The translations under genes were made by a program, and so were the position numbers. DNA of 64,000 nt. Source: Hydrolagus colliei. Taxonomy: Eukaryota. This document shows positions 7,245 to 25,177 of this stretch, in pieces. The DNA is taken from contig CM068744.1 in NCBI GenBank assembly GCA_035084275.1, forward strand, positions 84,382,001 to 84,446,000. The letters run 5' to 3'. How positions within the stretch are numbered: position 1 is the first letter of the stretch; each line of letters begins with the position of its first letter. The notes below the pieces were generated by a model. It made no database searches, was not told the DNA's origin, and was given only the letters and a program-made list of their open reading frames with translations.

Positions 7245-7821
7245 TCTTCAGCTTCAGACCCAAGAGACTCCTCAGGAGACTGCAACATACGGCTCTGTGA
7301 GACCATACAGGGAGAGTCCACTGCTGGCGAGAGCAAGGAGGACAGAGAGCTTTCACACCTATCGTGATTTTCAGCCATTTACATTCTGTAAAAATGTCTT
7401 GGACAAGGGCAGTGCTGGCAATGAGAGTGACTCCTCAGCGCAGCTGGAGGCTGAACCAAAAGGAAAGAAGCTTGGAGCTACAGAGTGCAGCATTGTTGAT
7501 CGAAAGGGCCCGACAACAGACACGCGAGTGAGTAACAATCCGGACGGCATGTCGGAGAGCCAGAGAGCGGGCGACAGCCCGGCTGACCTCAAGAAAAAGG
7601 TACCAGATGAAGAAACTGATAAGGCTGAGAGCAAGAAGAAAAATACTTTTGAGGGAGGGTTTCTGAGCAGGAAGAAACCAGTTGCAGGGCAGCAGCAGTG
7701 GGCAGCATCACCTGAAGGAGGCAGCGAGACGCCCAGTGCTGCCTCGCTGTCACCAACTAAAGTAACCACCTCTCCTCGCCACAAGAAGTCCGAAACTCCA
7801 AGCCAGGAACACAGTGCGTGA
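7245..7821 (+). CDS. KCTD3: KCTD3 last coding exon to TGA (LQLQ...YGSVRPYRESPLLARARRTESFHTYRDFQ...SPRHKKSETPSQEHSA)
   Basis: Polypyrimidine tract plus ctgtag acceptor; KCTD3-type motif RESPLLARARRTESF; adjacency to USH2A supports KCTD3 over SHKBP1. Confidence 0.95.
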
Positions 7822-15866: not shown

Positions 15867-15956
15867 CTACAGCTGGGTGTCAGTGAATATTGTGTGCTCT
15901 TTTGTAACTGTACTGAAGCCTTTGATGGACTCCAACAATTCTTCATCATCTGGGTA
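15867..15956 (-). CDS. USH2A: USH2A last coding exon (YPDDEELLESIKGFSTVTKEHTIFTDTQL*)
   Basis: tttcag acceptor, 30 codons including TAG; homologous to the usherin C-terminus (human ...TFTDTHL). Confidence 0.95.
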   Translation of the reverse strand, partial: YPDDEELLESIKGFSTVTKEHTIFTDTQL

Positions 15957-16427: not shown

Positions 16428-16643
16428 CATTCCGCTGTCGCGGCCCTGTACAAGGGAGTCCCACATCGAGTCTTCAAGCAAGGACTTTTTGTCGTGTGTA
16501 TCAATAAGCTGACTGACACTGCGATGCAGGGAGGTCTGGGAATAGGCCTGGCTCAGCTGGCTCTGGCTTGGCATACGTAACACTGACATTGTACGATTGC
16601 TGAGCTGAGATCCAGGTTCTGGGATTTTTGTGTCAGTCAGCCC
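16428..16643 (-). CDS. USH2A: USH2A penultimate coding exon (GLTDTKIPEPG...SLHRSVSQLID...GRDSGM)
   Basis: ttgcag acceptor, gtaatt donor, 216 nt, phase 0-0; within ORF 16314-16694. Confidence 0.95.
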
Positions 16644-17134: not shown

Positions 17135-17525
17135 AAATCATCGCTGCAATTCACTTTCAAGGTCATTCATGGCCTTGCCCCCTCCTATGTCTCTGACCTG
17201 CTGACTCCTTTTGATCAAATCCTTTTGCCCTACCATCGGTGGGCGGGTTTTCAGCCTCTCTGTCCCCACACTCTGGAATTCCATCCCACAGTCCCTTTAT
17301 CTGACTTCCTCCCTTGCCTTCTTCAAGGCTGGTCTCAAGACCTTCCTCTTCGTTCGTGCCTTCTGTCGCCTTCCCAACTCACTCCCTCCCCTCCTAACTC
17401 TCTCCCTCTCGTTCCCCCCTACCCTGCCCCTCCCCATTGCTTGAGTCCTGACCTGACTGTTCAGCGCCTTGGGACGTCCTCCCGACATGAAAGGTGCTCC
17501 ATAAATGTAATTTTGTTGTTGTTGT
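17135..17525 (+). mobile_element. L2-clade LINE 3' fragment
   Basis: TIGGRVFSLSVPTLWNSIP...FKAGLKTFLF; tail CAGCGCCTTGGGACGTCCTCCCGACATGAAAGG...(TTG)n. Confidence 0.88.
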
Positions 17526-18019
17526 AAGGGAAAAGGATTCAGTGGCGAGTTATGCAGAATGACTAGTTAGCCAGATGTATAAACAGTGTACATAAATAAA
17601 TGCGGCCAGGATACTGTCAGCATGATGGCTTGAGTGACGAGTTATCAGGATTTATTGGTCTGGTCCCATGCCTCAACAGGCAGCATGGATACGACTGAAC
17701 AAGAAAGAATTCTTTTTAAAATAACATTTATTTGGCAAAGGCTTTAAAGGGACGGTAAACAATAACCTGCACCATCATAAAGAATAAGAAATCTGGCCAC
17801 AGAGTGATAAGTTTCCTACAGTTTGGCAATCTGAGTTGAATTCCCTGCTGATGATATTGAATGCGTACAACAATGGATCACAAACTCAATTCACCACGCA
17901 GACAATTGACGCAGTATTTTACTCAGTCCTGCCACCATACTACAAAGTTATTTGCAGTGGTGGGGAGGGAGGGGGGAAGATTTGTTGTGTCTTGTAAATT
18001 CGTAGCACAATCTGTCAGA

Positions 18020-18290: not shown

Positions 18291-18609
18291 CAAAGAAAAG
18301 TACTGTACTGAAAAGTAACTTGAAAACGAAGGCAGTGCTTTAGAGGTCGATGAATTCTGGATGCTCTGAAATTTTAATAGGATAAATCTAGTCCCAGGTG
18401 GAATTTCTACTCGTACACCTGCATATTTTCATAAAACTTTGTCAAACAGCTTTCATTGCAGAAGTTGCCTCCGCTAACAACATTGAGGGGATTGCAAACT
18501 CAGCACACACTCCATGCAGCACAAACCATGCAATTAGTGCATTTCAGCAAGACCCAAGTCTTGCTCGATTTATTTGCACACAAGTGAGGCCACACACCCT
18601 CTGGCATAC

Positions 18610-18681
18610 CTCAAAGCACATTGTATAGCTCTTAAGTGTGACAGAACCTGAAGAATCTGAAGGCTCTGCAACAGAGTCAAA
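18610..18681 (-). CDS. USH2A: USH2A 72-nt cassette exon (FDSVAEPSDSSGSVTLKSYTMCFE), counterpart of the inner-ear-enriched exon 71
   Basis: tctttctctcctcag acceptor, gtatgc donor, 24 codons, phase 0-0; resembles the mouse peptide as I recall it (FDSVADISDVSSNVTLKSYTMHFE). Confidence 0.9.
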
Positions 18682-19714: not shown

Positions 19715-20428
19715 GTACGCAACCTTGGCGTCAGGTTCAATCCCAACAGTCCTTCCTTCCCCACATCCGGTCCCTCACCAGCACTGCTTTTTTCCACCTC
19801 CGACGGATCGCCCGTCTCTGGCAATATCTCGCCCCAAAAGCTGCTGAAACCCTGGTCCATGCCTTTGTCACCTCTCGGCTGGACTATTCAAATGTCCTCC
19901 TCGGTGGTCTTCCCTCTATCACAATCCATAAAATTCAACTCAAAGAAAATTCTGCCGCCCGCACCAAATTTTGCTCCCCCATTACCCCAGTTCTTGCCAG
20001 ACTTCACTGGCTCCCTGTCCCGGAGAGCATCGATTTCAAGATCCTCACCATTGTTTTCAAATCCTCCTCCACTCCTCTGCACCCACCTACCTCTCCGACC
20101 TCCTCTCTCCTCAAAACAACACCCGTTGCCTTTGCTCTACCGGGTCTGGCCTCCACCTTGTCCCCCGAATCCTCCGCTCCACCATCAGTGGCCGTGCCTT
20201 CAGCCACTACACCCCGACACTATGGAACTCCCTTCCTCACTCCCTTCGCCTTGCCCCCTCTCTTCCTAGTTTCAGGTCTCGGCTAAAGACCTTTCTCTTT
20301 GACTGCGCCTTCGGTCACTTTTCTCCCCCTCCCACTGGCTCGCCCCTGGGATCCGTTATTGTGAAGCGCTTTGAGACGCCGTCTGGCGTGGAGGGCGCTA
20401 TATAAATCAAAGTTGTTGTCGTTGTTGT
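19715..20428 (+). mobile_element. L2-clade LINE 3' fragment (variant tail)
   Basis: AFFHLRRIARL...AETLVHAFVTSRLDYSN...LHWLPV; frameshifted. Confidence 0.92.
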
Positions 20429-20871
20429 CAATAGTAAAGCACGAGTGGTAGGAACCAAGCACCACAATCATAACCTGCTTTTAATGGTTCATTCCCAAAG
20501 TGCACAATGTAAATATAAACTGGCTATTTGATTGAGACCGTGAGACTGGAATAAATGAATTCAGTCTTAGAGTTAGCAAGTTAACACATGACTGAGAATA
20601 GATTCCGCCTCTGTGAGTACACACTCCTCCACAAAAGCAGTAAGAGCTGTGAATCCCTGACTGTCCAGCGCCTTGGGACGTCCTCCCAATCAGTCAGAGG
20701 CAGGACTGGTTGAAGAAGTTTCAGCCTTTAGAAGGATATGCTAGTTATCGTTAATGTGGCGGATTAACAAACACCCCAAATTTCACCAAAGAAGCTCACA
20801 TTGATCTGACTTAAAAACAGACATCACTCACCACTTGTACTTATTTATAACTCAGTAAGCCACTTACTTAC

Positions 20872-20976
20872 CTTGTCCTCGGATGTTTCTTCCACAAGTG
20901 GGGTAGGTACAAGAGGGACTTGCAACGTGGCTATATTGGAATACTGACTAGAGGCACTATCAGCTTTAGAGGTTTT
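20872..20976 (-). CDS. Candidate additional USH2A 105-nt in-frame cassette exon (KTSKADSASSQYSNIATLQVPLVPTPLVEETSEDK)
   Basis: AAG|GTAAGT donor, long polypyrimidine tract, ~137-nt AG-free zone, phase 0-0, no stop; no homology I can recall. Confidence 0.55.
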
Positions 20977-21769
20977 CTTGGTCAGGAAACACAGAACAGT
21001 TAATAATGTCAAGAAAGAAAGAGAAAAGAAAGTGCAGTTGAAATTTTGAGCACAAACAGGAATAAAGTGAGTTCAGGTAAATAATAAGGAATAAAGTGAT
21101 TCCAGATTAAGATTGCTTGATTGGTTGATAGATTTCAAATGGTCAGTACATGGCCACAGTCTTGTTAAGAACAATTCCATTTTGCCAAGATTTAAATGCT
21201 GACTTTAATGGTCATGGAGTCTTCTCCGGGTTGAATTTAAGTGACTTGTTTGAATTGCTGTGTTTATTTTGACATTCTTCCGGAGGATTCAGCACAATAT
21301 CTTATTTAACATCACTTATTTAACAGCACAAAGCAATGTGGAAAAGAAATCCAACTGTGCACGTAAATGCAAGAAGTGGATTAGCTGCCATTGCCTGGAT
21401 TCAAAACAGTAAAACGTGTCAACATCTAAAATTACAGACGTAATATAAACACTCTGTCAGAGTTTGCACCTTCCAGGACAAACACAAATAGGGCAAAATA
21501 ACTTAATAACAGCTTGCATTTATATGGCATCCTTCAAGCAGAATGGCATCTCTAGTTGCTGCACAGCAGCTCTGAGCAACGGAGAAGAGAGGGGGAGGTG
21601 ATAATTTAAGTCTGATAGATGGACTACAATGAAAGACAGGAGTTCATGGGAAGTCAATGTTATTGTCAACTGCCTTGTGTGTTTCATCTGCTATATGGCT
21701 CTTTTGTGGTACATGGTGAGGGCTTGAGGTGTCAAAGTAAAACAACTGGAATGCATATACAATATAATT

Positions 21770-22725
21770 GCAACAACAACCACAAAATTACAGTTATAGA
21801 GCGCCTTTCATGTCGGGAGGACGTCCCAAGGTGCTGAACAATCAGGTCAGGACCTGGGCAGTGGAGTGGTCGGAGTAGGGGGAAGGGGAAGGAGAGTTGA
21901 AGAAGAGGGAGAGTTAGGAGGGGAGCAGAAGGCATGGTCGAAGAGGAAGGACTTGAGACCGACCTAGAAGGAGGAAAGGGAGGAAGCGAGGTGAAGGGAT
22001 TGCGGGATGGAGTTCCATAGTGTGGGAGCAGAGAGGCTGAAAGCCTGGCCACCGATGGTAGGGTGGTTAGGGCGGTGGATGCGGAGCAGGCCAGAGCCTG
22101 CTGAATGGAGGGGATGGGCAAGCTGATAGGGAGACGGCAGGTCAGAGAGATAGGCGGGGGCAAGACCGTGAATGGCCTGAAGGTGAGGACGAGGATGTTG
22201 AAATCAATCCTCTGAGGGATGGGGAGCCAGTGGAGACGGGAGGTGGGAGTGATGTAGTCGCGGAGCCTGGTGCAGGAGAGTACATGGGCCGCAGAGTTCT
22301 GGATAATCTGCAGCCTGTGAAGGGAGAAGCTGGGCTGGCTGACGAGGAGAGAGTTCTCGTAATCAAGCCTAGATGTGATGAATGCATGAATGAATGTTTC
22401 AGCAGCATGTGGGGTGAGGTAATGGCGGAGTCTGGCAATGTTACGGAGGTGGTGGAAGGCTATACCAGTCATGGCACAAATATGGGGGAAGGAAGGACAG
22501 TTCGGGGTCAAACAAGATGCCCAGATTCCTGACTAGTTTTGAGAGGTGGAGAGAACAGCCTTGAATGCCGATGTTGTCAACTCCTGAGGTGCGGAGGCGG
22601 GGTGGACGGAGGAGCTGGTTGGTGGTGGAGAAGAGAAGCCGGGGTTGTCCTTCGCTTCCAGGATTATCCTGGAGTAGAAGGACGATTTGGCGGAGGGTAG
22701 AGAGGAGTTGTAGGACAATGTGAGG
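21770..22725 (-). mobile_element. L2-clade LINE fragment with internal deletion
   Basis: ORF 21732-22511: FHHLRNIARLRHYL...[10 protein letters not shown]...LQIIQNSAA...LHWLP. Confidence 0.92.
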
Positions 22726-22846: not shown

Positions 22847-23076
22847 CATAAAGGATTCATTGGGCACATTTGTTCTCTTCTGTAACGGGACTAAAGGTGG
22901 TCTTTCACGTTTATATGGTTGCTTATTGACTGCTCTTTGGAGAAGCAGAGCCAAGATGATAGCCACAAACAGCAGCCCAAGAATTGCCATTAGGATAATG
23001 AACCAGAGTTCACTGTAGAATGGAGTCTTTGCTGGATGAACCCCTGTTTTTCCATCGGCAGAAGGTAGTAAAGGAC
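22847..23076 (-). CDS. USH2A: USH2A transmembrane exon (human exon 70 equivalent): FYSELWFIILMAILGLLFVAIILALLLQR...RERPPLVPLQKR
   Basis: ttgaag acceptor, gtaagt donor, 230 nt, phase 1-0. Confidence 0.95.
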
Positions 23077-23552: not shown

Positions 23553-25093
23553 AAACTCTTACAGTACAGTAATTGTGGACTAATCAGAAGTGTGGTGTTG
23601 ACTAGTATCTGACTGCTGGGTCATTGGGGCGCTGATGATACTGGAACAATATCACGTCCTACTGAAAACTGGAAATGACATAACCAGTGTTTTCTACGCA
23701 CAGTGTGGAGGCATGCACCACACAGGAAGTAATGTCAGGGATGACCCAGAGGGCAGCCCTTATTAGAGTCTCATTTATAATGCAATCCCTGAAATATTGG
23801 ACTACAACCAAGATTTCTTTGGAGTTCTTTTATTGAAATGACTGAGAAAACGTTTGAGATGTCTATTGAATTGATTGGGATTTTACACCAGGCAGTCTGT
23901 GTTGTATTTAGCATGCCTTACTGTGTTCAGAATTATGTACAAAGCTCTGTTCACACCAAAGTGGCTCCACTGCACAAAGCTGTGTGATAACAGATGTTAC
24001 AGATGTCATGCAGATTGGGGTTCTTCTATTACACGTTGAACTGCCCCAAGTCGTTATGTTTGCTCGTTTACTGAAGGCATTTTTGTTGTACTGCTATCAT
24101 GGCAATACTGGGTGAAAAGTGTGACATTCACTGAAACTAATCAGGATTACGCAAACTGGCTGGAAAGCTGTTGTTGGCTGCTGCTGGTAGTTTGGGGCGC
24201 CACCACTTGCACAAAATCTAGGGCAACTCGCTTTTCATCAGGTATTGAAACTGTCAGCGCCTTGGGATGTCCTCCCGACATGAAAGGCGCTCTATAAATG
24301 TAATTTTGTTGTTAGTGATGCATTCATGAGGGAGAAGGGAAAGACGGGCTTTGGAAAAGCAAGCTAGGAAGATGGAGGGGGTCGGTGGGGGTAGGGGGGA
24401 GGTATATTTGGATGGAGGAAGGCTCATGTGGAGTATAAACACCAACACAGACTAGTTGGTGCTGTGATGTCTATGTAATTCTGTATAATTGCTCATGACA
24501 TTGGCATCAGCGAAAGATTCCCAGACAATAATTATCACAAATGATATTCATTAAATTGAAAGTGCCATTTTCAACCCATTTGCTCTTAATGTTGATAACA
24601 GCCTCAAGATCTCATCCTTTGCAGACCTCACAGTGGGTGTTGTTTGATCTTACCTCTCGTGGCCAAACAATCCGTTATAAGGAAATGGAGGTCCGAATCC
24701 TCCCTCATCTTGCTACATGGACTGGCTAAGTGAGATCAGAGACACGTGAAACTTTAGTGATTAGAGATAACATGTACTGTAAACTCGAGTGCACAAAGTT
24801 GTGTGATAGCAGACATTATAGAGGTCTTGTAGAATGGGTGAACTACATGTCTAAGTCACACCTTCATGCATGTTCTAGGTCAGTGTAACCAGAATCCTTG
24901 CTCAAGGAGGGCCGTTCCCAGGAAAGCTGTAACAAGTGATGAACACTCATCTGCAAAGTCATTCCTTACGGAGCAAGCTTTTTATTTCAGACGTGCCATT
25001 TGCGGGATATTGCAAAGAGGTGTCTTCCCTGGGTTTCCCGCAGTTTCTATGCAGTTCAAAAACAAAAGCAATGGCAATGTCATCTATACTCAC

Positions 25094-25177
25094 CGACACC
25101 TGTGGCTGTGTTGTATGTAATGATGGGAGTGCTGGTACTTCCCATATCTGTTGTGCAAATAACTCGGAATAGAAAAG
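25094..25177 (-). CDS. USH2A: USH2A exon 69 equivalent (TFLFRVICTTDMGSTSTPIITYNTATGV)
   Basis: ttgtag acceptor, gtgagt donor, 84 nt, phase 1-1; hand-translated. Confidence 0.93.

Follow-up and report, generated by a model that had tools for sequence, protein, structure and literature searches.

The 105-nt segment at positions 20872-20976 on the minus strand of the window (the whole 64,000-nt stretch of Hydrolagus colliei DNA that was analyzed) is very probably an ancient exon, alternatively spliced, of USH2A, the principal gene of Usher syndrome type 2. We refer to it as exon A. Its strong in-frame splice sites, together with a homologous insert that gene models of other vertebrates optionally carry at this junction, make this reading likely; since these homologues span sturgeons and reptiles, exon A would already have been present in the common ancestor of all jawed vertebrates. 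It appears to have been lost in birds and mammals, judging from gene models alone. The original prediction of an additional coding cassette in the cytoplasmic tail is thus very likely correct, given the first rank of the segment among 880 candidate exons and the insert homology, while its attribution to "this lineage" was too narrow in view of the homologues in sturgeons and reptiles.

The 3' end of USH2A occupies the minus strand of the window with 11 constitutive exons (49398 to 15867). When joined, these form one frame of 1178 codons, in which the sole stop is terminal and the C-terminus reads DTQL. In the exons that could be aligned, identity to Callorhinchus milii usherin is 79-100% and identity to the usherins of two mackerel sharks is 62-93%, values that most likely mark a holocephalan other than C. 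milii. The upstream neighbor of exon A is the constitutive transmembrane (TM) exon (22847-23076, minus strand), which is 96% identical to C. milii usherin and whose previously given boundary needs a small correction, the start being 23076. Downstream lie the 72-nt cassette exon B (18610-18681, minus strand), the constitutive penultimate exon (16428-16643, minus strand) and the last coding exon (15867-15956, minus strand), which ends in the PDZ-binding motif DTQL. On the plus strand, a long open frame at about 7250-7818 gave no Pfam match; we take it to resemble the last exon of KCTD3, the tail-to-tail neighbor of USH2A in human.

Every sequence detail predicted for the 105-nt segment with the consensus donor AAG/GTAAGT (splice boundary marked by a slash) checked out. 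The acceptor reads ...ctgaccaag/AAAACC and the donor GACAAG/gtaagtaagt, with GTAAGT at 20866-20871 on the minus strand. Frame 0 is stop-free and translates to KTSKADSASSQYSNIATLQVPLVPTPLVEETSEDK (35 aa), and both other frames contain stops. Like the donor of the TM exon (22847), exon B (18681-18610) and the penultimate exon (16643), it is phase 0-0, so that the claim of an open, phase-compatible segment holds; all four isoform joins translate without stops. The closest AG upstream of the acceptor is at 21117, which leaves a 137-nt AG-free zone (20979-21115, minus strand). As claimed, this zone contains a pyrimidine tract (77% pyrimidines at positions -50 to -3) and the branch-like motif TTAAC (21003), to which TTAAT (21110) can be added. 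The suggested internal acceptor is likewise present: an in-frame CAG before 20943 would yield a short form of 72 nt and 24 aa (20872-20943, minus strand) that retains an LQVP core, and counterparts of this form are found in rattlesnake and Atlantic sturgeon. In sequencing run X1, which behaves like genomic contigs, we observed a G>A difference at 20927, a CpG transition that changes Thr17 of exon A to Met beside LQVP; it was seen in one contig and may represent an allele or a close relative.

In order to score these sites, splice-site matrices were built from the 11 constitutive acceptors and 10 constitutive donors of the window. With a splice score of 17.8, exon A ranked first among the 880 AG..GT pairs of USH2A introns (29,995 nt) that are in frame and open, a rank that is indicative because the matrices rest on few training sites, one of them a GTAAGT donor. 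In the same scan, exon B came third, and exon A in its short, 72-nt form came fifth. The donor of exon A is the sole AG/GTAAGT in the 29,995 nt of intron and scores 12.4, above 10 of 10 constitutive donors. Its acceptor scores 5.4, below all 11 constitutive acceptors (6.2-10.7), and its AG-free zone is the longest among 1891 intronic AGs.

The statement that exon A does not stem from a recognizable repeat withstood the tests of depth at 90% likeness, self-match, tandem repeats and Rfam, the reach of which ends short of very old repeats. Contig depth at 90% likeness was 48 in the bin 20769-21019 compared to 10^5-10^6 in the adjacent repeat bins, indicating that the segment is near single copy. 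Within the window, exon A had no self-match better than E 0.076 and did not match the FN3 exons at the DNA level; neither a tandem repeat nor an Rfam match was found in it. An origin from an FN3 linker was considered and discarded (E 1.5 or worse, DNA match absent). High-copy repeats with LINE-like frame remnants, labeled as such by appearance, lie at 19742-20317, 21763-22597 and 17226-17526. The repeats on both sides of exon A end short of it, and the closest self-repeat ends at 20687.

Homologous inserts were sought in a set of at least 257 usherin proteins, obtained from three protein searches (one of which contributed the best 120 of 183 matches) and three cluster look-ups with at most 15 members listed per large cluster. 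We classified the 223 proteins that contained both junction anchors and dropped 34 fragments, short isoforms and divergent models. An A insert was defined by length, as an extra 18-34 aa after removal of the exon-71 peptide encoded by exon B. Among the matches listed, the length of the junction segment was bimodal, with 169 models lacking and 54 of 223 carrying the A insert. These 54 represent 33 species; clade labels were assigned from source names, and the counts are not independent, many rows being isoforms of one species. The insert was present in 11/15 models listed for teleosts, 4/6 for sturgeons and paddlefish, 4/8 for gars and bowfin, 0/3 for bichirs, 1/1 for axolotl, 8/17 for frogs, 13/30 for lepidosaurs, 1/11 for turtles and 12/15 for crocodilians. 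It was found in 0/32 models listed for birds, 0/76 for mammals (monotremes not among them), 0/6 for sharks and rays and 0/3 for C. milii. Exon B is also missing from all three C. milii models, though it is certainly ancient.

In five species (Alligator mississippiensis, Crocodylus porosus, Podarcis raffonei, Lepisosteus and Engystomops), the gene models include pairs in which the insert is either included or skipped. A 23-aa short form is found in rattlesnake (10 models, P0049 group) and in the Atlantic sturgeon Acipenser oxyrinchus (one model, P0166). It begins directly past the equivalent of Q11 in the long forms of python and sterlet. Q11 is unchanged in 8 aligned long forms, which is expected if its codon serves as the second acceptor, as read from the protein rather than the codon in those species. 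The homologue evidence consists of gene models throughout, some of which are possibly ab initio or projected.

Sequence similarity supports the assignment of these inserts to exon A. In a global alignment with the alligator insert, exon A reached a score of 46 with 13 identities (0/20000 shuffles), and when this insert was compared locally with 12,780 windows covering the six frames of the 64 kb, exon A was its best match. The best of 31 distinct inserts was that of sterlet, with 14/35 identical residues, 0/2000 shuffles and a z-score of 8.0. In total, 8 of the 31 distinct inserts were at or below 1/2000 shuffles against exon A; the z-scores of the others were 6.5 and 6.2 for crocodilians, 6.2 for turtle, 6.1 for paddlefish, 5.6 for Podarcis, 4.2 for python and 4.0 for the short form of Atlantic sturgeon. 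The remaining 23, including 11/11 from teleosts, 2/2 from gar and that of axolotl, missed this level; two frog inserts were at 5/2000 shuffles and the other 21 were weaker. Some of these weak inserts are linked via a third species, namely those of axolotl and Pelobates to alligator (0/1000 shuffles each) and those of Chanos and Arapaima to sterlet (0/1000 shuffles each). Percent identity of exon A to lizard, turtle, python and gar is 31-34%, compared to 62-75% in exon B and 57-72% in the penultimate exon.

A profile of seven reptile and chondrostean inserts, from which exon A was excluded, placed exon A first among 2896 segments from the six frames (E 0.0011), and the match began at the acceptor codon. 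Profiles of all inserts also put it first, weakly (E 0.048 and 0.088); in reptile-only, teleost-only and amphibian-only profiles, exon A was outside the top four. An unbiased tblastn search of sterlet usherin against the window recovered 20976-20887 with E 0.02, again starting at the acceptor. A further tblastn match at 36008-35916 (E 0.013) lies outside the exon order and was discarded as chance, which makes tblastn alone borderline. The case therefore rests on the splice rank, the shared junction, the order relative to exon B, the ends in register and the internal acceptor. Indeed, the splice sites fall at the two ends of the peptide, KT.. and ..DK. A phmmer search with the 35-aa peptide against 1.84 billion representatives returned two matches, both to long tandem-repeat proteins unrelated to usherin, which we regard as artefacts. 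Neither A, B and the candidate cassette C (see below) nor the penultimate exon had a Pfam match, and the exon A peptide had no PDB match at E 10.

Regarding function, inclusion of exon A would add 35 aa, and use of the internal CAG would add 24 aa; the sequence keeps the frame. The insert would lie roughly 30 residues in from the membrane, with the intact PDZ-binding C-terminus roughly 100 residues further downstream. In gene models of other species, A is used alone, used with B or skipped. According to the available text of PMC10039067, whirlin and PDZD7 bind the C-terminal PDZ-binding motif, as mapped with fragments downstream of the exon A junction, so exon A should leave this binding in place. 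In an AlphaFold2 prediction of the Podarcis A+B tail, based on a shallow alignment of 13 sequences, confidence was confined to the TM helix, and exon A (pLDDT 35-47) had no secondary structure. In such a predicted disordered tail, exon A may act as a plug-in short linear motif and spacer rather than as a folded domain.

Across exon A and nine reptile and chondrostean inserts, D6, Q11, L18, Q19 and P21 are invariant and V20 is conserved in 9/10. The codons of L18-Q19-V20-P21 are at 20914-20925 on the minus strand. This LQVP (residues 18-21) is present in both the long and the short form, and an LxVP core occurs in 8 of the 9 distinct reptile and chondrostean inserts; it is absent from the gar, teleost and amphibian inserts. 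The conserved core fits the LxVP docking motif of calcineurin, for which the available text of PMC5156906 defines the core and a strict form, [NQDESRTH][YTDFILV]LxVP. Exon A departs from the strict form by A at -2; among the inserts aligned, only those of sterlet and paddlefish conform to it. In the available part of 10.1101/632547, the strict pattern misses 16 of 25 validated peptides, and a validated calcineurin-binding NOTCH1 peptide has the identical LQVP core. The main text of PMC5156906 and that of 10.1101/632547, as far as available, do not mention usherin. Of 20000 shuffles of the exon A peptide, 410 contain L.VP, and the motif was spotted post hoc, after alignment. We tentatively suggest, as a possibility less likely than not, that LQVP docks calcineurin and could thereby couple the Ser/Thr-rich tail to Ca2+-dependent dephosphorylation. 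Some other specific binder of exon A is about equally likely.

There is a considerable, slightly less than even chance that exon A is a real exon which acts only as a spacer or as a low-complexity phosphorylatable linker, with the conservation of LQVP reflecting another binder or exonic splicing signals. This reading competes with the calcineurin step alone and leaves the status of the exon untouched. It is in line with the gar, teleost and most amphibian inserts, which keep the exon without LxVP, with an identity about half that of exon B, with Ser/Thr at 10 of 35 residues, and with the presence of LxVP or Lx[ILM]P in the constitutive next exon of many species. It sits less well with LQVP having remained unchanged from chimaera-like fish to sturgeons and reptiles while its flanks drifted, and with the retention of LQVP in both forms.

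We consider it quite improbable that exon A, although ancient, is now silent or decaying in cartilaginous fishes. The 0/9 cartilaginous-fish models listed with an A insert, an acceptor below all constitutive ones and the one non-synonymous difference in run X1 would agree with such a remnant. However, long neutral decay would probably not have spared the open frame, the splice sites, the internal CAG and an identity of 40% to sterlet, the donor is the best in 30 kb of intron, and the C. milii models miss exon B as well.

Exon B (24 aa) is the orthologue of mammalian inner-ear exon 71. It matches an insert in human (model P0218), mouse isoform 3 (model P0241), rays and sharks and is found in at least 48 models, from rays and sharks through human, which makes exon 71 as old as jawed vertebrates. 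It is intact in the window, yet absent from 3/3 C. milii models, and a second GT 12 nt downstream (18598) has an equal donor score. Exon B is present in 12/32 bird and 10/76 mammal models listed; the pipelines that catch B in these clades have thus not caught A. Among the matches listed, A followed by B in tandem occurs in 20 of the 54 insert-bearing models, from 11 species. The isoforms of Podarcis raffonei contain A+B (X1), A (X2) or neither (X3), and gar likewise has A+B, A and neither. The tandem models indicate that the cassettes are combinable, one of the two options originally offered for exon A and the 72-nt cassette. The other option, mutual exclusivity, has very little probability left. 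The 34 of 54 insert-bearing models with A and without B, and the shared length of 72 nt of exon B and the short form of A in the window, would be compatible with it; against it stand the tandem models and the 2190-nt intron between the two exons, and the local scores of A versus B (about 17-23) are at background and thus give no signal of duplication.

That exon A is a chance pseudo-exon, a young lineage-specific exonization or a decayed FN3-linker fragment, resembling bony-vertebrate inserts by coincidence between Ser/Thr/Pro-rich peptides, is hardly credible: a chance match of similar E elsewhere in the window, the lack of significant similarity for most inserts and a weak FN3-linker likeness (E 1.5 or worse) could be cited for it, but composition-preserving shuffles never reach the observed score (0/20000 for alligator, 0/2000 for sterlet), the FN3 exons have no DNA self-match to exon A, and the junction, the order relative to B, both ends and the internal acceptor after Q11 all agree.

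Besides A and B, a third candidate cassette, C, lies at 24654-24725 on the minus strand, upstream of the TM exon and downstream of the exon that ends at 25094. It is 72 nt long, phase 1-1, and has the sites cacttag/...GAGAG/gtaaga, which rank 16/880. Its 24-aa extracellular juxtamembrane peptide contains two cysteines and matches an insert in sawshark model P0001 (16/25 identical, score 79, 0/20000 shuffles). A C-like insert was seen in this sawshark model only (1/204 proteins with both anchors among the matches listed). Cassette C would extend the extracellular stalk beside the membrane, and it looks conserved between chimaera and shark.

Different control of the two tail cassettes is suggested by their flanks. 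The 200 nt upstream of exon A contain 12 TCTT/TTCT motifs against a background of 2.0, the highest value of 13 exons; this number is also reached by 1 of 167 non-overlapping intron windows, and the pyrimidine richness is partly the long tract itself. Neither TGTGTG nor TGCATG is found near exon A. Downstream of exon B, three TGTGTG and two TGCATG motifs (18509-18596, minus strand) form a candidate RBM24/RBFOX-type enhancer, in which we take TGCATG to be the RBFOX-type element; each of the two motifs occurs 16 times across 33.5 kb. The weak acceptor and UCUU-rich tract may point to PTB-type repression of A, with RBM24-type sites at B, so exon A is probably under control separate from B and of the PTB type, and B would be a hair-cell-type exon as in mammals. 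A precedent is exon 68 of Cdh23, which RBM24/RBM38 activate via UGUGUG and PTBP1 represses via UCUU (available text of PMC7397384).

Crocodilians, turtles, lizards and snakes have neither a lateral line nor electroreceptors. That they have kept exon A weakens the special link to these organs that had been considered. A broader scenario is an ancestral tail code of two independently regulated cassettes giving six tail forms, with C in cartilaginous fishes and A as a calcineurin site that was lost twice. We regard this scenario as unlikely. If true, the ankle-link/periciliary USH2 complex would be Ca2+-phosphatase-regulated by cell type, with the switch lost in birds and mammals, and fish and amphibian Usher models would express tail isoforms that are missing in patients.

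In the available parts of two reviews (PMC8417766, PMC8268283), exon 71 is the sole extra USH2A tail exon named, and both cite Adato et al. 2005 for it as a 24-aa inner-ear insert. Long reads from human retina gave a 72-exon form of USH2A and no regular alternative exons in the available text of PMC12047242; Table S3 of that paper lists 41 sporadic cryptic exons, including one in intron 70, which with 55 nt fits neither A nor B by length. The zebrafish reference ush2a transcript has 72 exons according to the available text of PMC7372554. A second tail cassette is not mentioned in the available text of PMC3781144 (medaka), PMC10018040 or 10.64898/2026.03.09.710525, nor is one described in the available text of the literature searched, a scope ending at subscription papers and other papers' supplements. 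Exon A is apparently undescribed in print, though it already exists, unnamed, in automated models of other vertebrates. Hence "unrecognized", the term originally applied to it, stands for the literature searched and for the cartilaginous-fish models listed and fails for RefSeq, GenBank and UniRef models of other vertebrates.

Exon A is not a new kind of system, and automated annotation already has it in other species. It falls upstream of the PDZ-binding motif, in a tail region with little mapped function, and it is relevant when Usher models outside mammals are interpreted, since an insert that is missing in human usherin is frequent here among the gene models of teleosts and frogs. The divergence of jawed vertebrates dates back roughly 450 million years, and a cassette kept for that time implies a selected, undescribed function.

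Exon A can be compared with four known systems. The calcineurin LxVP motif shares with it the LQVP core, which in exon A sits in a cytosolic, Ser/Thr-rich region predicted to be disordered, whereas the strict six-residue pattern is absent from exon A. Exon 68 of CDH23, as described in the available text of PMC7397384 and PMC10018040, is an inner-ear cassette in the cytoplasmic tail of a hair-bundle link protein and is alike in outline, being an optional in-frame tail peptide of an Usher adhesion protein that is capable of scaffold tuning. CDH23 is a different gene, however, and in the window RBM24-type sites flank exon B and not exon A. Exon 71 of USH2A lies in the same intron, is phase 0-0 and, like exon A, provides an optional in-frame tail insert upstream of the PDZ-binding motif. 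In contrast to exon 71, whose peptide (24 aa, TLKSY) is encoded by 18681-18610 and against which exon A scores at background, exon A lies upstream, shows no sequence relationship, comes in a long and a short form with other flanking motifs, and occurs in 0/108 bird and mammal models listed. The closest counterpart is the unnamed A insert of automated models, such as Alligator KYO43601.1, Crocodylus XP_019405018.1, Podarcis XP_053239129.1/130.1, Polyodon XP_041108645.1, Acipenser XP_033872973.3 and Lepisosteus XP_069036185.1. It agrees with exon A in junction, order, length (34 versus 35 aa), short form and LQVP core and is, by these shared features, very likely the orthologous exon. No C. milii, shark or ray model listed carries this insert, and the window takes exon A to the cartilaginous fishes and thereby to the root of jawed vertebrates.
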